From IMG/VR virus record IMGVR_UViG_2671180986_000005: 14,395 nucleotides of DNA, one strand, 5' to 3'. This DNA is from a virus (taxonomy: Duplodnaviria > Heunggongvirae > Uroviricota > Caudoviricetes). This document shows positions 1-14,395 of this stretch, piece after piece (position 1 is the first letter of the stretch; each line of letters begins with the position of its first letter). The translations under genes were made by a program, and so were the position numbers. The notes beneath the pieces were generated by a model that was not told where the DNA came from, ran no database searches, and was given only the letters and a program-made list of their open reading frames with translations.

Positions 1-2353
1 CATCGCCTGCTTCAGAAAAATCTCTGTCAGCATGGACAGCACAGAACGGGTGAAACCACGCCAGTTCTGTTCGCTGCCGATCAGCATCGCTGCCATATTC
101 TGTGCAATACCGTCAAAGGTCTGCGTGGCCGCGTTTTTAACCTGCGAAAAACTGTCCGTCGCACTTTCCGCCCACTCGCCCCAGCCGGACTTCATCCCGG
201 CCATCCAGCTTCCACGAAGCTGCTCCTCCGCAGACCAGGTGTTCTTCAGTGCAGATGTGGCCTTCGCCAGCGCAGCCGGATTATCACCGTACACCTCACG
301 AAGGCGCTGCTCTTCCGACTCCCGCTGCGCCTGACGGTCGGTGAGTCCGCGGGCTTTTGCGCTGATTGCCGCCTGCTTCGCGCTCTGCTGCTGTTCAAAC
401 CGCGCCGCCTGCTGTGCCAGCTCATTCAGCCGTTTCTGGTGTTCAATCTTGTCGCCCAGCTCAGCCAGCTGGCGTTTGTACTCCAGCGTTTCTTTCTCAT
501 GGGCCAGCAGGGATTTTTCCTGCTCAGATAACTGCCGTTTCGTGGCGGCCTCTTTCAGGACCACATACTGATTTTCCGCTTTCCATAAATCACGGCGCTG
601 CTGGCTGATTTTTTCATTCGCACCGCTGTGCTTCTCCAGCGTCCTGAGCTCAGTTTCAAGCGCCAGCAGGGCTGCATGCGCCTGGTCTTCCTGGCGCTCA
701 CCGGCAGACACCTTCACACCGGACGGCTTTTTCTGCGTCGACTCATAATCCTTTTTTGNNNNNNNNNNNNNNNNNNNNNNNNNNNNNNNNNNNNNNNNNN
801 NNNNNNNNNNNNNNNNNNNNNNNNNNNNNNNNNNNNNNNNNNNNNNNNNNNNNNNNNNNNNNNNNNNNNNNNNNNNNNNNNNNNNNNNNNNNNNNNNNNN
901 NNNNNNNNNNNNNNNNNNNNNNNNNNNNNNNNNNNNNNNNNNNNNNNNNNNNNNNNNNNNNNNNNNNNNNNNNNNNNNNNNNNNNNNNNNNNNNNNNNNN
1001 NNNNNNNNNNNNNNNNNNNNNNNNNNNNNNNNNNNNNNNNNNNNNNNNNNNNNNNNNNNNNNNNNNNNNNNNNNNNNNNNNNNNNNNNNNNNNNNNNNNN
1101 NNNNNNNNNNNNNNNNNNNNNNNNNNNNNNNNNNNNNNNNNNNNNNNNNNNNNNNNNNNNNNNNNNNNNNNNNNNNNNNNNNNNNNNNNNNNNNNNNNNN
1201 NNNNNNNAGCATATCCGCTGAGGATTCCGGACGACCGATATCCAGAATGGCATNNNNNNNNNNNNNNNNNNNNNNNNNNNNNNNNNNNNNNNNNNNNNNN
1301 NNNNNNNNNNNNNNNNNNNNNNNNNNNNNNNNNNNNNNNNNNNNNNNNNNNNNNNNNNNNNNNNNNNNNNNNNNNNNNNNNNNNNNNNNNNNNNNNNNNN
1401 NNNNNNNNNNNNNNNNNNNNNNNNNNNNNNNNNNNNNNNNNNNNNNNNNNNNNNNNNNNNNNNNNNNNNNNNNNNNNNNNNNNNNNNNNNNNNNNNNNNN
1501 NNNNNNNNNNNNNNNNNNNNNNNNNNNNNNNNNNNNNNNNNNNNNNNNNNNNNNNNNNNNNNNNNNNNNNNNNNNNNNNNNNNNNNNNNNNNNNNNNNNN
1601 NNNNNNNNNNNNNNNNNNNNNNNNNNCGGCATTCACCANNNNNNNNNNNNNNNNNNNNNNNNNNNNNNNNNNNNNNNNNNNNNNNNNNNNNNNNNNNNNN
1701 NNNNNNNNNNNNNNNNNNNNNNNNNNNNNNNNNNNNNNNNNNNNNNNNNNNNNNNNNNNNNNNNNNNNNNNNNNNNNNNNNNNNNNNNNNNNNNNNNNNN
1801 NNNNNNNNNNNNNNNNNNNNNNNNNNNNNNNNNNNNNNNNNNACAGGACCAGCATACGATCTGCCGTCAGTCCCGCCTGATTACCGGAAAGGACCAGCGT
1901 TTTGTTGAAATCGGACAGGGTTGAGTTGCCCTGATACCAGGCATACGCCAGCGCACCGGTCGCCACCGCCAGCGAGGTGGCCCCCACCATCGGCAGGGTG
2001 ATCGCGCCGGCAAGCCCCCTGAACATGGGGATCATCCCGCCGAAGGAGTCCTTAACCTGACCACCCTGTTGCAGCAGGATCAGCCAGGGATTCTGCCCCC
2101 CTGCAAGCTGCGTGGCCACGTCGGTGAACTGTGCAGGCAGCATACGCATGGCGGCTTTATACTGCCCGACGGAAATCCCCGCTTTCTGTGCAGCCAGCGC
2201 CTGTCGGCTCAGCGACTGTTCAACGACTGCCGCTGTTTTTTTCGCATCACTTTCCGTACCGGAAAAATGACGCCTGACTCTGGCCATCTGCTCGTCAAAT
2301 CTGGCCGCATCCAGACTCAAATCAACGACCAGATCGCCTACCGGTTCAGCCAT
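1..2353 (-). CDS. H: tail tape measure protein (lambda gpH-like); C-terminus beyond window start, interior masked
   Basis: ATG at 2353-2351; the unmasked first 170 aa (MAEPVGDLVVDLSLDAARFDEQ...LTADRMLVL) match my memory of lambda gpH. The start overlaps the end of the T frame by 8 nt as in lambda. Coiled-coil-like coding continues in unmasked 1-758 (e.g. KKDYESTQKKPSGVKVSAGERQ) but in a different absolute frame than the N-terminus, so frame continuity through the masked blocks is unverified. Confidence 0.8.
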
Positions 2354-2780
2354 ACCGGACTCCTCCTGCGATCCCTTCTGATACTGTCATCAGCATTACG
2401 TCATCCTCCGTCATGTCCGCCACATCCGGGGAAGCGGGGATAACTTCATTCCCGTCCGGGCCAAAGCGGACACCTCCGGCAAGCCCTGCCGCTTTCTGCA
2501 TCAGCACATCATCTTCAGGCTCTTCGTCAGCCTCGCGCCGGTTCAGCAGACTGAAATCCAGCGGATGCATCTCCGGATCGCTGAAAAACAGGCTGAGCAC
2601 GGTGTACGTCAGCCCGGAAAAGTGCATATCCAGCAGAACATCATGAAAATAATGGGTACTGTAAAAGCGGTGCCAGTCGGCATACTCCGTGGATGACATC
2701 CCGGCAAGCATGGCGCGCCAGTCGGGTCGCCCCATCTCACGCGCCAGTTTCAGGGCAAAACTCAGCTCACCGTCGAACAC
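2346..2780 (-). CDS. T: tail assembly chaperone gpT segment, expressed only as a G-T fusion by -1 ribosomal frameshift
   Basis: Track ORF 2346..2780 (MFDGELSFALKLAREMGRPDW...) in the -1 frame relative to G; slippery heptamer immediately upstream; spacing to G start equals lambda G-T length (838 nt). Confidence 0.8.
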   Translation of the reverse strand: MFDGELSFALKLAREMGRPDWRAMLAGMSSTEYADWHRFYSTHYFHDVLLDMHFSGLTYTVLSLFFSDPEMHPLDFSLLNRREADEEPEDDVLMQKAAGLAGGVRFGPDGNEVIPASPDVADMTEDDVMLMTVSEGIAGGVRYG

Positions 2781-3184
2781 TTTCCCGCAGAAACAGGCTC
2801 TGCAGGCCCGGCGTCCTCTGCCTGTTCAGGAGCATCATTCACCACAAACTCATACATACCGGACAGCCGGTACACCACGTTTTCAGCATGAGAAATTGCC
2901 TCTGTGGGCCAGGTGGTAAGCACTTCCTGCTCAATCTGTTTAACGGCTTCATTCATGGACGGCATCTGCGTCTTCTTCGGATGGTTATGCCACAGGGACA
3001 TCGCAACCACAAAAGCGCCGGTTCTGATGGCGTCTTCCACAGTAAACTTCCGGTTGCTGTCTGACTCCGCCTGTTCTGCCTGCCGTTTCATCAGGTCGAG
3101 ATGCTCAATACGCTGCAGGGCTGACAGTTCAGAAAGCGTGACGGTCACACCGTTATGTTCAAATGATTCGGTTTTCAGGAACAT
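2762..3184 (-). CDS. G: tail assembly chaperone gpG
   Basis: 140-aa ORF, ATG at 3184-3182, ends ...SAGKCSTVS; same length as lambda G; 15-nt gap after the V stop as in lambda. Confidence 0.9.
   Translation of the reverse strand: MFLKTESFEHNGVTVTLSELSALQRIEHLDLMKRQAEQAESDSNRKFTVEDAIRTGAFVVAMSLWHNHPKKTQMPSMNEAVKQIEQEVLTTWPTEAISHAENVVYRLSGMYEFVVNDAPEQAEDAGPAEPVSAGKCSTVS
2780..2786 (-). promoter_or_regulatory. programmed -1 frameshift slippery heptamer G_GGA_AAG for G-T fusion
   Basis: Minus-strand sequence tct gcg gga aag tgt tcg acg gtg agc tga: GGGAAAG sits 6 codons before the G stop (2762-2764), and the -1 frame continues into the T ORF. Confidence 0.8.
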
Positions 3185-3199
3185 CGCTGACTCTCCGGA

Positions 3200-3940
3200 T
3201 TAACTGGCGGTGACGTTGATTTCTGCAACCGCAGCAAACTCACCATTACCAGATACGACCGGAATGTTGACCTTGCCTGCAGCAACACCTTTCACGGTGA
3301 TGGTCATACCACTGACCGACACGGTGGCTTTTGTTTTATCCGCAGACACCGCACGGAAGCTCTTGTCGGTTGCGCCATCCGGCTGGAATGCCACGGTCAG
3401 CGTGGTGCTCTGCCCTTTCACTACGGAAGCACTGGCGGGTGTCACCGTCATGCCGGTCGTCGCCGTCACCGTGCTGCGATCTTCTGCCATCGACGGACGT
3501 CCCACATTGGTGACCTTCACCGTGCGGGTAATCACCTCCTTCGCCGTCACCGCCTTACCGATACTGCTGACCCAGCCACGGAACACATCGACCGTGCCGT
3601 TCGGGAAGCGGATTTTATAGGCACGGGTATCACCTTCATTAAACCACGCCAGCAGCGCCTGCTGCCCCTGCTCTCCGGGCATCCACGCCAGCGTGAAGCT
3701 GGTATCTCCGGCAGATTTCTGCCCCTGCCCGGTCGCAGTCCAGTCTGCATCTTCATCATCGAGATAGCTGTCGTCATAGGACTCAGCGGTCAGTTCGCCG
3801 GGCGTCAGGTCTTTAACTTTTGCCAGACGCGACCAGTCAACGTCTGAAAGCGGGTTCGCATAAGGGTCACCGCTCCCCTTATAAACCCACAGGGTGGTCC
3901 CGGCACCTTTCACCGGCATTGTAGGATTTGGTACAGGCAT
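3200..3940 (-). CDS. V: major tail tube protein gpV with C-terminal Ig-like domain
   Basis: 246 aa from the ATG at 3940 ([22 protein letters not shown]...); the track ORF starts 10 codons earlier at an upstream ATG inside U. C-terminal region ([21 protein letters not shown]...) looks like a Big_2/Ig-like domain. 7-nt gap after the U stop as in lambda. Confidence 0.9.
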
Positions 3941-3947
3941 AGCGTCC

Positions 3948-4343
3948 TCACATTTCATAGATAATGACATAAGTCAGATCGGCTGAACTCCACAGGCCCG
4001 CATCATCGTCGCGCCGGTAGTCATAGCCGCTGGCCACCATACTGGTGATCAAATCTGACAGTGCCGGGATATCGCTCATCACCGGATAAATCCGGGACTC
4101 CATCCACGAATCCAGCTCTGAATCCGGCACCTGAGCAGGCAGGAAAACTTCAATATGCAGCTCCGCCTGCCAGGTATCGCTGTCCAGCTCTTCGCCCGTG
4201 TATTCAGCGCCGGTGAGATAAACGGCAATTGCCGGAAAATCTTCCTCATCAAAAACAGCGGGGCGACCATCAAAAAGCGTCGCCCCGGTGTCATGCTTCT
4301 CCAGTGCATCCAGTACGGCTGCACGGAGTTCAGTATGTTTCAT
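3948..4343 (-). CDS. U: tail terminator protein gpU
   Basis: 131-aa [23 protein letters not shown]...; start codon overlaps the Z stop (ATGA) as in lambda. Confidence 0.92.
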
Positions 4344-4918
4344 CGCTTTATTACCATTCTCAGTTGATGCTGCAGCGCATAGCCCAGCTCTTTCGGAAGA
4401 CGTTCACGCCGTATCCGTTCAATATTCTGTTTAAACGCCGTGGTCAGCGGCACCGCCATCGGGATTTTCACCACATCAATGGGGTAACGGTTTTTCCCGG
4501 CCACACGCTGCATAACATGCCACCGGCCGTTTTTCAGTTGCTGAATAAACGCGCCGGGAATACGACGGTTACCCACCACAAGCACGCTGCCGCCNNNNNN
4601 NNNNNNNNNNNNNNNNNNNNNNNNNNNNNNNNNNNNNNNNNNNNNNNNNNNNNNNNNNNNNNNNNNNNNNNNNNNNNNNNNNNNNNNNNNNNNNNNNNNN
4701 NNNNNNNNNNNNNNNNNNNNNNNNNNNNNNNNNNNNNNNNNNNNNNNNNNNNNNNNNNNNNNNNNNNNNNNNNNNNNNNNNNNNNNNNNNNNNNNNNNNN
4801 NNNNNNNNNNNNNNNNNNNNNNNNNNNNNNNNNNNNNNNNNNNNNNNNNNNNNNNNNNNNNNNNNNNNNNNNNNNNNNNNNNNNNNNNNNNNNNNNNNNN
4901 NNNNNNNNNNNNNNNNNN
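4340..4918 (-). CDS. Z: tail completion protein gpZ; start lies in masked block, start coordinate estimated from lambda length (192 aa)
   Basis: Unmasked C-terminal ~84 aa (...[80 protein letters not shown]); stop at 4340-4342 overlaps the U start. Confidence 0.75.
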   Translation of the reverse strand, partial: XXXXXXXXXXXXXXXXXXXXXXXXXXXXXXXXXXXXXXXXXXXXXXXXXXXXXXXXXXXXXXXXXXXXXXXXXXXXXXXXXXXXXXXXXXXXXXXXXXXXXXXXXXXXGGSVLVVGNRRIPGAFIQQLKNGRWHVMQRVAGKNRYPIDVVKIPMAVPLTTAFKQNIERIRRERLPKELGYALQHQLRMVIKR

Positions 4919-5070
4919 NNNNNNNNNNNNNNNNNNNNNNNNNNNNNNNNNNNNNNNNNNNNNNNNNNNNNNNNNNNNNNNNNNNNNNNNNNNNNNNNNN
5001 NNNNNNNNNNNNNNNNNNNNNNNNNNNNNNNNNNNNNNNNNNNNNNNNNNNNNNNNNNNNNNNNNNNNNN

Positions 5071-5424
5071 NNNNNNNNNNNNNNNNNNNNNNNNNNNNNN
5101 NNNNNNNNNNNNNNNNNNNNNNNAACTTCCGCCATCATCCGGCGAAACCCGATCTACCCAGAAATTTTCCTCACCGATGGTCAGCGTGTCTCCACGCCGC
5201 AGCTGCCGCACCTCATCAGTCCGGACAAACAGGGACGGGCTGGAGCCTTCAACGCGCACGCCCTGTCCGGCATAGCTGATATTTTCAGGGTCATCAAAAA
5301 CACCACGTATCACCGCACCTGACTGCTCACCGGATGTCATGGTGGCTGACGTTCCCATGTACCCGCGTATCGTTTCATCGGCGCGGGCAATGGCAGCATC
5401 GAACAGGTTATCGAAATCAGCCAC
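5071..5424 (-). CDS. FII: head-tail joining protein gpFII; 3' end lies in masked block, end coordinate estimated from lambda length (117 aa)
   Basis: Unmasked N-terminal 100 aa MADFDNLFDAAIARADETIRGYMGTSA...VDRVSPDDGGS; ATG at 5424, 11 nt after the FI stop as in lambda. Confidence 0.8.
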
Positions 5425-5435
5425 AGCGCCTCCCG

Positions 5436-5834
5436 TTATTGCATTCTGGCCAGGCCGCGCTCTGTCATTTCGGCTGCCACACCGGCAGAGACACGAAACG
5501 CCGTTCCCGGCAGCACAAATGCCACAGGTTTATCCCGCGTGGCGTGAAGTGCATCAGTATGCAGCGTCACCAGTGCCACGACCGTGACCAGTTCAGCCGT
5601 ATCCTGAATCACGGTATCCGGCTGCGCTGATACCACCTCATTTTCATGCCCGGTCAGCACATTTTCCCGGCTGAGAGGGGTGTCCTGACCGGCAGTTTCA
5701 TCCGTGTCATCAAGCTCTTCTTCCAGCTCTGCCACACGAAGCGCCAGTTCTTCTTTCGTTCCCGTCAAACTGACATCGCGGTTCAATTGCTCACCCAGCT
5801 CCTGAAGACGGGCAATCAGTTCATCTTTCGTCAT
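5436..5834 (-). CDS. FI: DNA packaging / head assembly protein gpFI
   Basis: 132 aa from the ATG at 5834 (MTKDELIARLQELGEQLNRDVSLTGTKEELALRVAELEEEL...); the track ORF starts earlier at a non-ATG codon. GGAGG Shine-Dalgarno upstream. Confidence 0.9.
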   Translation of the reverse strand: MTKDELIARLQELGEQLNRDVSLTGTKEELALRVAELEEELDDTDETAGQDTPLSRENVLTGHENEVVSAQPDTVIQDTAELVTVVALVTLHTDALHATRDKPVAFVLPGTAFRVSAGVAAEMTERGLARMQ

Positions 5835-5846
5835 GAACTCCTCCAC

Positions 5847-5871
5847 AGAGAGAAAATGGCCCCGAAGGGCC
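5847..5871 (-). terminator. terminator-like hairpin in E-FI intergenic region (GGCCC-UUCG-GGGCC followed by U-rich tract)
   Basis: Minus-strand sequence after the E stop: tcatggcccttcggggccattttctctct; 5-bp GC stem with UUCG tetraloop and a U-rich tail. Likely an attenuator or mRNA-stability element in the late operon. Confidence 0.45.
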
Positions 5872-5875
5872 ATGA

Positions 5876-6901
5876 TTACGCCAGTTGAACGGACACGAAC
5901 TCATCAGGATCAGCCAGCAGCATCAGCGGTGCTGACTGAATCATGGTGAACTCACGCGCCGGATCGCCGGTGGTCACCCAGTTTTTCGGGTAACGGGCAG
6001 AGGCGTTAATGCCTTCGCGCTGTGCGTCCGCATCCTGAATGCAGCCATAGGTGCGCAGACCGCGAGCCTGAGTGTTCCCCAGCACCATCGTGTTGTCCGG
6101 CAGGAAGTTCTTTTTGACGCCGTTTTCCACGTACTGTCCGGAATACACGACGATGGCCACATCGCCATACATTCCCTTATAGGACACCGCTTTGCCCAGG
6201 TCTTTTACCGCTGTCTCCAGCTCGGAATGAGAGCCGCGACGGGTATCCAGCTTCTCCTTGACGGCTTTGAAGGAACGGAACAGCGCCCAGCCTTTCGGGT
6301 CAAACACGATGATATTCACCACACCGCTGGCGTTCAGCGCGTAGGCTTCGATATCGTCGGTCGGGTCATACGTGGACTTGTCACGCTTGCTCCACTCCGT
6401 GACGCCGGACTGTGTGATGTTGTTCGCCGCACTGCGGCCCATATCCACCTCAACCGGATCGAAGGCTTCACCGGTCATGGTGTATTTGCCCTTGAGCACG
6501 GCAGAAACTGCCTGCATCTCTTCGACCTGAGCAATGGCCAGCTCTTCGTCACGCATGTTCTGCATGATGATGCGACGGCGGCGGTAAGCCGGGTCCGCCA
6601 GATTCTGCGGATCTTCATCCGGCAGGCGACGCAGGGTCATCTGCGGATTCACCTCATGCTTGGGTTTGACATATCCCGGCGTAAATTCAGAGGTGGAGCC
6701 GCCACGGGAACGGATAACCTCACCGGAAACAATCGGCGAAACGTACAGCGCCATGTTTACCAGTCCCGGAATTTGTGAGAGATAGACTTTCTCCGTAGTG
6801 AAGGGATAGCTCTCACGGAAAAAGAGACGCAGAAACAGCGGATCAAACTTAAATTTCTGCTCATTTGCCGCCAGCAGCTGGGCGGTTGTGTACATCGACA
6901 T
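5876..6901 (-). CDS. E: major capsid protein gpE (HK97-fold)
   Basis: 341 aa from the ATG at 6901 (MSMYTTAQLLAANEQKFKFDPLFLRLFFRESYPF...SAPLMLLADPDEFVSVQLA); the track ORF is extended upstream by a non-ATG start. Confidence 0.93.
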   Translation of the reverse strand: MSMYTTAQLLAANEQKFKFDPLFLRLFFRESYPFTTEKVYLSQIPGLVNMALYVSPIVSGEVIRSRGGSTSEFTPGYVKPKHEVNPQMTLRRLPDEDPQNLADPAYRRRRIIMQNMRDEELAIAQVEEMQAVSAVLKGKYTMTGEAFDPVEVDMGRSAANNITQSGVTEWSKRDKSTYDPTDDIEAYALNASGVVNIIVFDPKGWALFRSFKAVKEKLDTRRGSHSELETAVKDLGKAVSYKGMYGDVAIVVYSGQYVENGVKKNFLPDNTMVLGNTQARGLRTYGCIQDADAQREGINASARYPKNWVTTGDPAREFTMIQSAPLMLLADPDEFVSVQLA

Positions 6902-6913
6902 AAAAAAATCCCG

Positions 6914-6936
6914 TAAAAAAAGCCGCACAGGCGGCC
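6914..6936 (-). terminator. terminator-like hairpin in D-E intergenic region
   Basis: Minus-strand ggccgcctgtgcggc followed by ttttttt, then acgggattttttt and the E ATG; 5-bp GC stem, 4-nt loop, T7 run. Confidence 0.45.
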
Positions 6937-6956
6937 TTTAGTGATGAAGGGTAAAG

Positions 6957-7289
6957 TTAAACGATGCTGATTGCCGTTCCGGCAAACGCGGTCCGTTTTT
7001 TCGTCTCGTCGCTGGCAGCCTCCGGCCAGAGCACATCCTCATAACGGAACGTGCCGGACTTGTAGAACGTCAGTGTGGTGCTGGTCTGGTCAGCAGCAAC
7101 CGCAAGAATGCCAACGGCAGCACCGTCGGTGGTGCCATCCCACGCAACCAGCTTACGGGTGGAGGTGTCCAGCATCAGCGGGGTCATTGCAGGCGCTTTC
7201 GCACTCAATCCGCCGGGCGCGGTTGCGGTATGAGCCGGGTCACTATTGCCCAGCGGCTGGTAATGGGNNNNNNNNNNNNNNNNNNNNNN
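6957..7289 (-). CDS. D: head decoration protein gpD; first ~7 codons lie in masked block, start estimated from 110-aa lambda length
   Basis: Unmasked portion reads ...[82 protein letters not shown]; stop at 6957-6959; 56-nt gap to the E start as in lambda. Confidence 0.85.
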
Positions 7290-7298
7290 NNNNNNNNN

Positions 7299-7941
7299 NN
7301 NNNNNNNNNNNNNNNNNNNNNNNNNNNNNNNNNNNNNNNNNNNNNNNNNNNNNNNNNNNNNNNNNNNNNNNNNNNNNNNNNNNNNNNNNNNNNNNNNNNN
7401 NNNNNNNNNNNNNNNNNNNNNNNNNNNNNNNNNNNNNNNNNNNNNNNNNNNNNNNNNNNNNNNNNNNNNNNNNNNNNNNNNNNNNNNNNNNNNNNNNNNN
7501 NNNNNNNNNNNNNNNNNNNNNNNNNNNNNNNNNNNNNNNNNNNNNNNNNNNNNNNNNNNNNNNNNNNNNNNNNNNNNNNNNNNNNNNNNNNNNNNNNNNN
7601 NNNNNNNNNNNNNNNNNNNNNNNNNNNNNNNNNNNNNNNNNNNNNNNNNNNNNCGTCGCTTGCACCACGCCAGTAACGTCAGCCTGCGAAGCAGTGGCTG
7701 AAACAGTTGTTGATTGAGTCTCTTTGGTCATTCGCCCTCCTGAGAGACGGGATTTACGTGCATCCAGTGCATCACGCATGACGGTGATCGCATCGGTACT
7801 GTTAACAAGTTCATCAGCCAGTCCGGCATCAATGGCCTCCTGACCGCTGTACACTGCAGCCTCGGTATCCAGCACAGCCTGCACGGACAGGCCGGTATAT
7901 GCCGACACCTTCTGTGCAAACATCCGGCGGGTTGCATCCAT
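7299..7941 (-). CDS. nu3: scaffolding protein Nu3, internal in-frame start within the C reading frame (position inferred from lambda Nu3 offset)
   Basis: In-frame Met (MDATRRMFAQKVSAYTGLSV...) at the position corresponding to the lambda Nu3 start as I recall it; the C-terminal part is masked. Confidence 0.45.
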
Positions 7942-8346
7942 CCGGGACTGCAATGTTTCCCGGACATCATCCGGTAGATGGCTGTAGGGGTTGCCATCCA
8001 CCTTATGGCTGCCGCTGTAAATCAGCGTGATTTCCACGCCCTGTTTCTCCAGTGCAGCGCCGTAATTACTGTGAGCCATCATGACGCCGATGGAGCCTGT
8101 CCGGGCGGTCTGCGTGACCAGACGCCGGGAGGCGGCACTGGCAAGCAGCTGACCTGCGCTGCAGTTCATGTCATTGGCCAGCGCCCATACCGGCTTTATG
8201 TCACGCACACGGGCGATGATGTCAGCGCAGTCAAATGCTCCCGCCACCATTCCGCCCGGTGTGTCCATATCGAGCAGAATGCCGTCCACCATCGGGTCGC
8301 TGGCAGCCTGTTGCAGACGGGCGATAATGCCGTTGTAACCGGTCAT
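7299..8346 (-). CDS. C: head maturation protease gpC (S49/ClpP-like), C-terminal fragment downstream of a frameshift; 3' end masked and estimated
   Basis: ORF starting at the ATG at 8346 (MTGYNGIIARLQQAASDPMVDGILLDMDTPGGMVAGAFDCADIIARVRD...TGSIGVMMAHSNYGAALEKQGVEITLIYSGSHKVDG...), an S49-like protease core; continues into masked block 7268-7653. Confidence 0.75.
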
Positions 8347-8616
8347 CCCCGAGTACGGCTGACCAGCGTGCCGGACACCGGCAGCACGGCGATGCCGTTC
8401 ATTACCTGATAACTGCGGGCCTGTCGTGGTCCGTCATCATCACCGGATAACGCCAGCGCCGCGGGTGCCTCTCCGGCAGTCAGGCTGTCGCCGGATACTG
8501 CATCCGTCAGGCAGCTGATCCCAAGCTGGCCTGCAAGCGCACAAAAGAAAACCCGCGCATAGGCGGGTTCAAGCATCAGCGGCTCATTAAAAGCCNNNNN
8601 NNNNNNNNNNNNNNNN

Positions 8617-8636
<20 letters not shown>
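8343..8636 (-). CDS. C: gpC N-terminal fragment upstream of the frameshift; start in masked block, estimated
   Basis: Unmasked ...AFNEPLMLEPAYARVFFCALAGQLGISCLTDAVSGDSLTAGEAPAALALSGDDDGPRQARSYQVMNGIAVLPVSGTLVSRTRG then TGA at 8343-8345, overlapping the ATG of the downstream fragment (ATGA). Confidence 0.7.
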
Positions 8637-12380
<3,744 letters not shown>

Positions 12381-12406
<26 letters not shown>

Positions 12407-12926
12407 TCAGCAACCCCGGTATCAGTTCATCCAGCGCGGCTGCTTTGTTCATGGCTTTGATGATATCCCGTTTCAGGAAATCAACATGTCGGTTTTCCAG
12501 TTCCGGAAAACGCCGCTGCACCGACAGGGGGATCCCGTCGAGAATACTGGCAATTTCACCTGCGATCCGCGACAGCACGAAAGTACAGAATGCGGTTTCC
12601 ACCACTTCAGCGGAGTCTCTGGCATTTTTCAGCTCCTGTGCGTCGGCCTGCGCACGCGTAAGTCGATGGCGTTCGTACTCAATAGTCCCTGGCTGGAGAT
12701 CTGTCTCGCTGGCCTGCCGCAGTTCTTCAACTTCCCGGCGCAGCTTTTCGTTCTCAATTTCAGCATCCCTTTCGGCATACCATCTTATAACGGCGGCAGA
12801 GTCATAAAGCACCTCATTACCCTTGCCACCGCCTCGCAGAACGGGCATTCCCTGTTCCTGCCAGTTCTGAATGGTACGGATACTCGCACCGAAAATGTCA
12901 GCCAGCTGCTTTTTGTTGACTTCCAT
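12381..12926 (-). CDS. nu1: terminase small subunit gpNu1 (winged-HTH cosB-binding)
   Basis: 181-aa ORF MEVNKKQLADIFGASIRTIQNWQEQGMPVLRGGGKGNEVLYDSAAVIRWYAERDAEIENEKL...; N-terminal HTH; located directly downstream of cosB. Confidence 0.95.
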
Positions 12927-13103
12927 TGTTCATTCCACGGACAAAAACAGAGAAAGGAAACGACAGAGGCCAAAAAGCCCGTTTTCAGCACCTGTCGTTT
13001 CCTTTCTTTTCAGGGGGTGTTTTAAATAAAAACATTAGGTTACGGCGAAGAAGAACGGAAACGCCTTAAACCGGAAAATTGTCATAAATAGCGAAAACCC
13101 GCG
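12927..13103 (-). promoter_or_regulatory. cosB: terminase Nu1-binding region with three R elements (core CGTTTCC), two in one orientation and one inverted
   Basis: Core GGAAACG/CGTTTCC occurs three times between cosN and the Nu1 ATG: about 12952-12966 (aggaaacgacag), about 12991-13006 (ctgtcgtttcctttc, inverted) and about 13053-13065 (gaacggaaacgcc). Arrangement as lambda R1, R2, R3. Confidence 0.65.
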
Positions 13104-13115
13104 CGCCTTCCGCCC
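13104..13115 (-). other. cosN (terminase nicking site, 12-nt cohesive-end sequence) with cosQ-side flank to about 13150
   Basis: Minus strand reads ...gatccgacaggttac GGGGCGGAAGGCG CGCGGGTTTTCGCTATTTATGA...; flanks on both sides match the lambda right end / left end junction as I recall it. Coordinates are within 1-2 nt. Confidence 0.7.
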
Positions 13116-13150
13116 CGTAACCTGTCGGATCGCCGGAAAGGACCCGCAAA

Positions 13151-13253
13151 ATGATAATAATTATCATCTACATGTCACAACGTGCATCTACGCCATCAAA
13201 CCACGTCAAATAATCAATTATGACGCAGGTATCGTATTAATTGATCTGCATCA
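13151..13253. repeat. cos-flank element copy 1 (~105 bp), begins with 17-bp palindrome ATGATAATAATTATCAT; runs into masked block
   Basis: Direct repeat with copy 2; last ~60 bp nearly identical (cgccatcaaaccacg..aaataatcaattatgacgcaggtatcgtattaattgatctgcatca). Reverse complement resembles the last ~110 bp of the lambda genome as I recall it. Confidence 0.7.
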
Positions 13254-13376
13254 NNNNNNNNNNNNNNNNNNNNNNNNNNNNNNNNNNNNNNNNNNNNNNN
13301 NNNNNNNNNNNNNNNNNNNNNNNNNNNNNNNNNNNNNNNNNNNNNNNNNNNNNNNNNNNNNNNNNNNNNNNACGAA

Positions 13377-13486
13377 ATGATAATTATTATCATCTATATA
13401 AGGTTTATCACAACATGTGTGTACGCCATCAAACCACGAGAAATAATCAATTATGACGCAGGTATCGTATTAATTGATCTGCATCA
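13377..13486. repeat. cos-flank element copy 2, begins with palindrome ATGATAATTATTATCAT
   Basis: About 85 percent identical to copy 1 with small indels in the middle; preceded by masked block 13254-13371. Confidence 0.7.
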
Positions 13487-13547
13487 ACTTAACGTAAAAA
13501 CAACTTCAGACAATACAAATCAGCGACACTGAATACAGGGCAACCTC

Positions 13548-13733
13548 ATGTCAACGAAGAACAGAACCCGCAGAACAACAACCCGCAACATCCGATTTCC
13601 AAACCAGATGATTGAACAAATTAACATCGCTCTTGATCTGAAAGGTTCAGGAAACTTTTCAGCGTGGGTTATTGAAGCCTGCAGAAGAAGGCTGTCAACA
13701 GAGAGTTCGGGTATGAATTACATAATTAAGTAA
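13548..13733 (+). CDS. small basic protein (61 aa) with ribbon-helix-helix-like pattern; possibly a YlcI/YnfO-type (DUF3950-like) cos-adjacent prophage protein
   Basis: ATG with AGGG 7 nt upstream; MSTKNRTRRTTTRNIRFPNQMIEQINIALDLKGSGNFSAWVIEACRRRLSTESSGMNYIIK: basic N-tail, then RNIRFP (beta strand), NQMIEQINIAL (helix), glycine turn, AWVIEACRRRL (helix), as in Arc/CopG-type proteins. Family assignment is from memory, not a search. Confidence 0.55.
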   Translation: MSTKNRTRRTTTRNIRFPNQMIEQINIALDLKGSGNFSAWVIEACRRRLSTESSGMNYIIK

Positions 13734-13847
13734 CATGGTGTTCACAGAACACGCAGTTACCGGACACATCAGTTTTCCATTCGCTCCCTGGCAGTACAGG
13801 CTTCCCCTCTGACGGGATAGCCTGAAAAAATAACACAGAAAATTATT

Positions 13848-13856
13848 TGTTATAAT
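13848..13856 (+). promoter_or_regulatory. candidate extended -10 promoter (TGtTATAAT) without a clear -35
   Basis: tgt tataat at 13848-13856 within the AT-rich ORF-poor region; a transcript from about 13863 would be antisense to the small minus-strand ORF at 13866-13997. Confidence 0.25.
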
Positions 13857-14395
13857 TAATATAACTTACTCAAAAAAAAGCGACGAGAAAATCAGCATCA
13901 ACGAACAATAAGCGCCAATACGTGATAACAAATGGCAGCCATATTTATCTGCAGTATAAGCAATGGACAGGATAACCACACCAGAAACCGTCAGCATAAA
14001 ATCCATTTGAACTTCCCCGGACAAAATCGACTCATCTAAAGATTTACAGCTCTTTTTATTATTAATATGTTAAAAGCAAAATAAACAGATGTTCAATAAC
14101 ACGAATACAAAAACGTGCTGAAATTCAATGAATCCATTTCTGTGTCATCAATTAATAGTGATAAACATCCGGCTTCTTCCACCATCGCACCGGACAGGCG
14201 ACTATGAGGGGACAACGCCGCGCTCCGTTAACGCGGTAAACCCCGGTGTGTATCGTTTTTGATTATCCCCGCACACTCGCGCAGAGGAGTCTCCCTGTCG
14301 GGCTGCGGTCTCTGTTAATGAGGGAATACAGCGACGATACGGCGCATTGAGGTGTACTGGCAATAGCGGACACTACCATTTGTTCTTTTTTTAAG

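Follow-up and report, generated by a model that had tools for sequence, protein, structure and literature searches.

Lambda-type cos sites, such as those of phages lambda, 21 and N15 and of Gifsy-1, share a common order and spacing of elements, in which the terminase small-subunit gene Nu1 is followed by cosB, a 12-nt cosN, a highly conserved 7-bp cosQ and the flank of the right chromosome end (Feiss et al. 2015, PMC4669245). The overhang half of cosN, which contains positions 7-12, varies naturally and tolerates change, and the cohesive ends of N15, phiD326 and Gifsy-1 carry two to three changes from those of lambda (PMC4669245). Two direct cos sites within one molecule have been described in helper-packaging dilysogens, which are engineered or selected cos duplications whose sites lie approximately one genome length apart (PMC4669245). 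The region upstream of Nu1 homologues has also been linked to iron regulation. Strong predicted Fur clusters lie upstream of the Escherichia coli K-12 genes nohB (in DLP12; 25.3 bits) and nohA (in Qin; 22.3 bits, at -233). Purified Fur shifts the nohA site in gels, and work cited in the same paper (Vassinova and Kozyrev 2000) places this site on a fragment that an in vivo selection for Fur binding had recovered (Chen et al. 2007, PMC2189734). A single-copy element consisting of a lambda-type cos and a Fur palindrome 233 bp upstream of Nu1 is thus already known. Also known are false duplications that flank gaps in short-read scaffolds, in which uncollapsed alleles or paralogues are placed in series.

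Here, we describe the cos region of a lambda-like prophage contained in a 14,395-nt IMG/VR virus record (hereafter, the window), in which the flank of cos appears twice on either side of a run of Ns. An earlier note on this DNA had proposed a tandem duplication. We present evidence that the two copies are different natural alleles and that their tandem arrangement is probably an artefact of assembly or scaffolding. The features on which the analysis depends are as follows.

12381-12926, minus strand: Nu1, terminase small subunit, 181 aa, first gene to the left of cos (Pfam PF07471 Phage_Nu1, E = 2.4e-101; DNA 100% identical in Shigella sonnei 53G).
12930-13103, no strand: predicted cosB region, for binding of the terminase small subunit and IHF (from position and lambda homology; collinear with the region upstream of nohA in K-12 Qin).
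13104-13115, no strand: 12-nt cohesive-end region of cosN, variant CGCCTTCCGCCC (regular-expression comparison of 28 loci).
13139-13145, no strand: cosQ, AGGACCC, packaging termination signal (GGACCC-bearing flanking block in 28 of 28 loci matching the pattern).
13146-13253, plus strand: copy 1, 'A' allele, end of the left contig (within a 4,183-nt block 100% identical to S. sonnei 53G, CP044151 and L052).
13151-13167, no strand: predicted Fur box 1, ATGATAAT-A-ATTATCAT (centre at 13159, 233 nt upstream of the Nu1 start at 12926).
13151-13178, minus strand: sigma-70-like promoter match, leftward toward cos and Nu1, -35 GTGACA, 16-nt spacer, -10 TATCAT (consensus scan, 10 of 12 positions; overlaps Fur box 1).
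13254-13371, no strand: scaffold gap, 118 N (also N in the public record itself).
13372-13441, plus strand: start of the right contig, 5' part of copy 2, 'B' allele (no mismatch in 70 nt to B-type loci).
13377-13393, no strand: predicted Fur box 2, ATGATAAT-T-ATTATCAT (same allele single-copy in 13 other locus entries).
13442-13595, plus strand: shared segment S1, comprising the 3' part of copy 2, the leader and the first ylcI codons (equal to the S. sonnei sequence that follows copy 1).
13548-13733, plus strand: gene of the ylcI/ynfO family, DUF3950, 61 aa (Pfam PF13132, E = 9.2e-19; RefSeq homologues named 'YlcI/YnfO family protein').
14348-14395, plus strand: IS600 end closing the scaffold (matches lie under an annotated IS3-like element IS600 family transposase; prophage homology ends at 14347).

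The minus strand of the window carries lambda-like morphogenesis genes from the tape-measure gene H to gpA, whose 641-aa product matches the Pfam families GpA_ATPase and GpA_nuclease, and Nu1. Beyond Nu1, the locus has the constituents of a lambda-type cos, with a conserved 7-bp cosQ upstream of cosN, then cosB, and then Nu1 and gpA, and it aligns collinearly with K-12 Qin and many other prophages. We take the AGGACCC at 13139-13145 to be cosQ, as the reverse complement of lambda GGGTCCT; it lies 24 nt from the cosN region, and copy 1 of the flank begins directly after it. Read on the lambda strand, cosN is GGGCGGAAGGCG, which differs from the canonical GGGCGGCGACCT at positions 7, 8, 9, 10 and 12, while the left half (GGGCGG) and the CG on both flanks are intact, as in cosN sites of the lambda type. 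These five overhang changes exceed the two to three of N15, phiD326 and Gifsy-1. The variant is common only to loci of the S. sonnei type (L014, L017, L020, L033 and L052) and lies within a stretch that is 100% identical to S. sonnei 53G. Ends cut at this cosN would not anneal with canonical lambda ends. The idea that the variant marks a dead site was considered and withdrawn, since positions 7-12 vary naturally (PMC4669245). Between the Nu1 start and cosB there is an inverted repeat (12951-13007) with 26-nt arms that are 85% complementary and a 5-nt loop; it is kept in K-12 Qin and in other aligned relatives, and terminator-like matches fall at 12967-12980 and 12996-13019.

What sets the window record apart from any known cos is the second copy of the flank after the gap. 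Copy 1 (13146-13253, 108 nt) and copy 2 (13372-13486, 115 nt) are in direct orientation; aligned globally, they agree at 98 positions and differ by 10 mismatches and one 7-nt indel. The copies are offset by 226 nt up to the indel and by 233 nt beyond it. The last 46 nt of copy 1 (13208-13253) are found exactly in copy 2. The earlier note had correctly read two direct copies at these positions, each carrying a perfect 8-1-8 palindrome (ATGATAATAATTATCAT at 13151-13167 and ATGATAATTATTATCAT at 13377-13393). The repeats and palindromes are real letters of the record; the intervening block is no mask, and the physical tandem is without contiguous sequence. The left contig ends (13253) 46 nt past the last base that distinguishes the copies (13207), and the right contig starts (13372) at the first allele-variable base after cosQ.

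The block between the copies, positions 13254-13371, had been described as masked. It is one of seven N runs in the window, and it is N too in the public record CXDQ01000102.1 (GCA_001252575.1), of which the window is the complete scaffold. That record, reached through an exact match to the 61-aa protein, has the same length of 14,395 nt, and its compared part is identical to window positions 3548-14395, including the four N runs in that interval. Because the public record has the same Ns, the N runs are scaffold gaps of a draft assembly, not masks over known sequence, and there are no bases behind them to unmask. The lengths of the runs are also inexact. The closest relative, L052 (IMGVR_UViG_2693429733_000004, in IMG/VR), is 100.000% identical to the window over 2200-4594, 5124-7267, 7654-8595 and 9071-13253 (9,664 nt), and its segments at three of the window's N runs measure 388, 349 and 412 nt, as against 529, 386 and 475 N. 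At the left end, a tape-measure allele of the E. coli STEC005 type, which also gives the placement of two small sequence islands (46 and 12 nt), predicts 371 and 345 nt for runs of 449 and 373 N. All six checkable N runs other than the one between the copies are too long, by 28-144 nt. The notion that the Ns hide lambda-identical or otherwise content-defined sequence was rejected, as L052 and L033 show these segments in letters, and the runs of N do not have the true lengths of the segments they replace. Across the junction between the two copies, where a true tandem would be read through, the source record has no contiguous sequence, only the 118-N gap.

The origin of the left contig can be traced closely. 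Window positions 9071-13253 (4,183 nt), which end with copy 1, are 100% identical to S. sonnei 53G (HE616528.1; strain identity from PMC5447701) and to CP044151. In 53G and L052 the sequence continues uninterrupted from copy 1 through the leader to a ylcI homologue of 77 aa and then a DUF1398 gene, up to what appears to be an IS2 end, with a single copy of the flank. By these identities, the left contig is an S. sonnei-type defective lambda-like prophage with Nu1, cosB, the variant cosN, cosQ and the 'A' flank allele. PMC5447701 lists S. sonnei drafts from the collection of Holt et al. 2012 whose accession prefixes (CXBN, CXBR and CXBV) are close to CXDQ, and the prefixes indicate that the CXDQ record is probably an S. 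sonnei short-read draft of the same batch.

Relative to S. sonnei 53G and to E. coli relatives, the window has a 19-bp deletion at 8355/8356, between CGGCTG direct repeats in the prohead protease gene (C/Nu3, minus strand). This deletion is private to the window and L052, which was found as the closest relative by a scan of IMG/VR for the deletion junction; a scan of metagenomes for the same junction gave no match. The deletion splits the protease reading frame into 7243-8346 and 8343-9119, and the prophage is therefore probably defective.

The right contig begins with a different allele. Positions 13372-13441 match twelve B-type loci (L005, L023-L030, L046, L048 and L054) without a mismatch in 70 nt. 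In ten carriers compared, among them L005, L023-L028 and L030, this head is directly preceded by GGACCC, the cosQ core, and a canonical cosN, AGGTCGCCGCCC. The 'acgaa' that the earlier note had singled out in front of the second palindrome, where it suspected a further cos-like junction, is indeed what follows cosQ and cosN in the compared phages with the B allele. The two copies thus appear, from these comparisons, to be two natural extant alleles of one locus, each of which normally occurs singly and directly after cos. The next segment, S1 (13442-13595), is identical over 153 nt to the S. sonnei-type loci (L014, L017, L020, L033 and L052); of the twelve B-type loci that are perfect over 13372-13441, ten differ from it by 12-15 mismatches and the other two, L005 and L054, by 5. 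From 13596 onward the window is nearest to the B type once more, differing by 2 mismatches over 752 nt. By this pattern of matches, the right contig is itself a mosaic, passing from the B allele through 154 nt of S. sonnei type back to the B type. A 51-aa open reading frame that spans the join of the head and S1 occurs in no other record of a 153-billion-gene collection.

Some mosaicism is general in this interval. Compared among the loci collected here (L001-L063), the approximately 450 bp from cosQ to ylcI (13146-13595) form a fine-scale mosaic across lambdoid prophages, in which the flank head, S1 and the body of ylcI assort almost independently and the arms of the Fur box are invariant. 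Elsewhere in the window, the left scaffold end (1-758) and two islands at 1208-1253 (46 nt) and 1627-1638 (12 nt) carry a different allele of the tape-measure gene H. Positions 1-758 are 99.3% identical to the STEC005-type tape-measure gene and only 77% identical to the S. sonnei type, and relative to the H start at 2353 the reading frame of this allele is shifted by one base. The comparison indicates that the scaffold switches allele at N runs at its left end too. The end of the left contig, the start of the right contig and the 46- and 12-nt islands would fit node boundaries of a de Bruijn graph at a repeat, which we offer as a suggestion. A specific rule with k = 47 fits the left-contig end and the 46-nt island; at the boundary at 1843, with the alleles available, it was not borne out, and it too stands only as a suggestion.

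The arrangement was sought in other genomes. A single copy of the flank is present in the approximately 48 independent loci compared, the exceptions being the source itself and SQGE01000155.1. Among 5,426 complete E. coli genomes, the ten best-covered records, those with 80% or more of the 901-nt query, all extend over 660-675 nt, as expected of one copy, and the best-ranked matches among 50,697 phage records are likewise single-copy. The closest relative, L052, and S. sonnei 53G have one copy rather than the tandem arrangement, as do lambda and its relatives, in agreement with the earlier note, which did not expect the duplication in lambda. Pattern scans, which used exact anchors at fixed spacing and are therefore only partly sensitive, found the end of copy 1 followed by the copy 2 palindrome at this spacing in none of 185,579 species genomes, nor in IMG/VR or JGI metagenomes. 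The pattern of the copy 2 head gave no match in the species genomes and seven in IMG/VR viral contigs, all of them single-copy. A literature search found no natural duplication of cosQ or cosN. The region as a whole is present at several places in E. coli genomes (median 2, up to 13 per genome), and paralogous alleles are therefore to be expected within one read set. The exact 61-aa YlcI protein occurs in only 56 blocks of the collection; exact-protein look-ups for gpA and a 46-aa protein were also tried as guides to relatives, and both proteins proved too common to inform.

SQGE01000155.1 (L003/L053, positions ~900-3000) is a draft scaffold with 10-N linkers and a 147-N gap, in which two copies of the cos flank lie 1,862 nt apart beside a fragment of Nu1. 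It constitutes a second case in which flanks of cos are repeated around gaps in an assembly.

Taken together, these observations make it likely that the apparent tandem duplication is an artefact of assembly or scaffolding; we infer that the two contigs are not truly in tandem in the source genome. The proposal of a tandem duplication has as its sole basis a scaffold join over an unsequenced gap, while the copies are different extant alleles and the closest relative is single-copy; the evidence favours the caution, also voiced in the earlier note, that the repeat might arise from assembly. Each copy represents a different allele that is single elsewhere, so that neither is derived from the other, and a difference of 10 substitutions and a 7-nt indel between extant alleles is not what a duplication event produces. 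The case resembles known false duplications around gaps in that an N run separates alleles of ~91% identity, the contigs break where repeats begin or end, gap sizes are only approximate and alleles switch at other N runs. Under an artefact, the left contig would stop inside a stretch of ~150 nt that other lambdoid prophages carry too. The right contig would start with the B allele, which is found in nature after the cosQ and cosN of a different prophage lineage, and then pass through the shared stretch into ylcI, and the scaffolder would have placed the two contigs in series with an estimated gap. Two routes could lead to this outcome. The contigs may come from two paralogous lambdoid prophages and have been put in series, or they may truly overlap, with the B-allele head misthreaded into the shared repeat and the ends left unmerged. 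The size of the gap estimate weighs against an artefact: the scaffolder linked the contigs with a positive estimate of 118 N, larger than expected of a false duplication by simple overlap, and a single-copy overlap would require an over-estimate of 233 nt, as compared with 28-144 nt at the six other checkable N runs.

This gap estimate is also the main argument for a real tandem of unlike alleles, in which the A flank would be followed, within approximately 0-90 nt, by a second, B-type cosN and cosQ core and the B flank. Correcting the 118-N estimate by 28-144 nt leaves approximately -26 to +90 nt of hidden sequence, as opposed to the 115-nt overlap that a single copy demands. Moreover, GGACCC and a canonical cosN precede 'ACGAA' in the compared B-type relatives, and a cos core therefore very probably lies upstream of position 13372 in the genome, an order that a real tandem would render as S1, cos core and ACGAAATGATAATTATT. 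We nevertheless regard a real tandem as unlikely. Contiguous sequence for it is absent, the closest relative is single-copy and the arrangement was found nowhere else in the searches described above. Since the copies are distinct extant alleles, the tandem would need a non-homologous join of two phage lineages, and not a simple duplication; its origin would be illegitimate recombination between two lambdoid phages. In addition, what follows copy 2 is an S1 of the S. sonnei type, which would be expected behind copy 1; this fits one real S1 better than two. It is, correspondingly, quite doubtful that, ~226 bp downstream of its S. sonnei-type cos, the source isolate has an inserted cosN-cosQ core and flank of the B type, with cohesive ends GGGCGGAAGGCG and presumably GGGCGGCGACCT and two Fur boxes. 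Were this so, the locus would be the trace of a natural event in which the genomes of two lambdoid phages were joined illegitimately by their ends at cos, and the prophage would have two termination signals (cosQ-cosN) as well as a pair of Fur boxes spaced 226 bp apart. Coming from the ylcI side, terminase would reach the B-type cosQ and cosN first, and the prophage would offer an unusual natural substrate for the choice of cos by terminase and for recombination of phage ends. As in the helper-packaging dilysogens, two direct cos sites would serve as upstream and downstream cos; unlike in those constructs, the ~226 bp between them would be far too short for a packageable unit. With an artefact as the favoured reading, the locus instead carries a caution: repeats flanking N gaps in genomes with several prophages should not be counted as biology.

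The palindrome at the head of each copy is independent of the duplication. The Fur box has the 7-1-7 motif TGATAAT-N-ATTATCA and the 19-bp consensus GATAATGATAATCATTATC. Both palindromes are perfect matches to the 7-1-7 motif, and that of copy 1 agrees with the classical 19-mer at 16 of 19 positions. The core TGATAATNATTATCA occurs twice in the window against 0.01 occurrences expected by chance. Over the approximately 48 loci the arms of the palindrome are invariant, and the central base is A in 21, G in 17 and T in 13. In K-12 MG1655 the corresponding palindrome, GTGATAATGATTATCAT (L063, 2093-2109), is centred 233 nt upstream of the nohA start (1868) and aligns column for column with copy 1 of the window. 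Judged by its perfect motif and its homology to nohA, the 17-bp palindrome is a known, here predicted, Fur site, the homologue of the validated K-12 nohA site. It resembles the K-12 Fur site at nohA (Qin) in its perfect 7-1-7 motif and in occupying the nohA position, at -233 from Nu1; it differs from the nohA site in the central base and one flanking base, and it is for the nohA sequence that Fur binding is established. The suggestion in the earlier note of a binding site for a dimeric protein is borne out by the perfect Fur-box palindrome and by the binding of Fur to the nohA homologue. Its candidate binder, the adjacent 61-aa protein, which it had called ribbon-helix-helix-like, fares less well. 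On that proposal, the palindrome would be the operator of YlcI/DUF3950, instead of or besides Fur, and two copies would allow cooperative autoregulation. The palindrome does lie upstream of ylcI, by ~390 nt (copy 1) or ~165 nt (copy 2), invariant arms around a variable centre are as expected of a dimer site, and the N-terminal region of YlcI looks ribbon-helix-helix-like, though by eye only. However, Pfam assigns the protein to DUF3950 alone, with no match to a DNA-binding family, and the promoter-like match over the palindrome points away from ylcI. The site has the perfect 7-1-7 and 16-of-19 agreement with the Fur box noted above, and its K-12 homologue is bound by Fur in gel shifts and, as cited in the same paper, was recovered by in vivo Fur titration (PMC2189734). 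We therefore consider a YlcI operator very improbable and retain Fur as the predicted binder. The Fur-box palindrome beside cosQ is conserved across lambdoid phages, including lambda, and its role in the phage has been little discussed.

Downstream of ylcI, homology to other prophages is interrupted by insertion sequences. The scaffold ends in a terminus of IS600 (14348-14395), inserted after ...CGACGATACGGCGCAT, and a pattern scan for this junction gave no match. In L052, positions 1-45 are another insertion-sequence end (TGGATTTGCCCC...), which we take to be that of IS2, located ~10 bp earlier in the homologous stretch. Homology in the 53G-type loci also breaks ~10 bp earlier, beside transposase genes of the IS3 family. 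The insertions at nearly the same spot look like events independent of each other.
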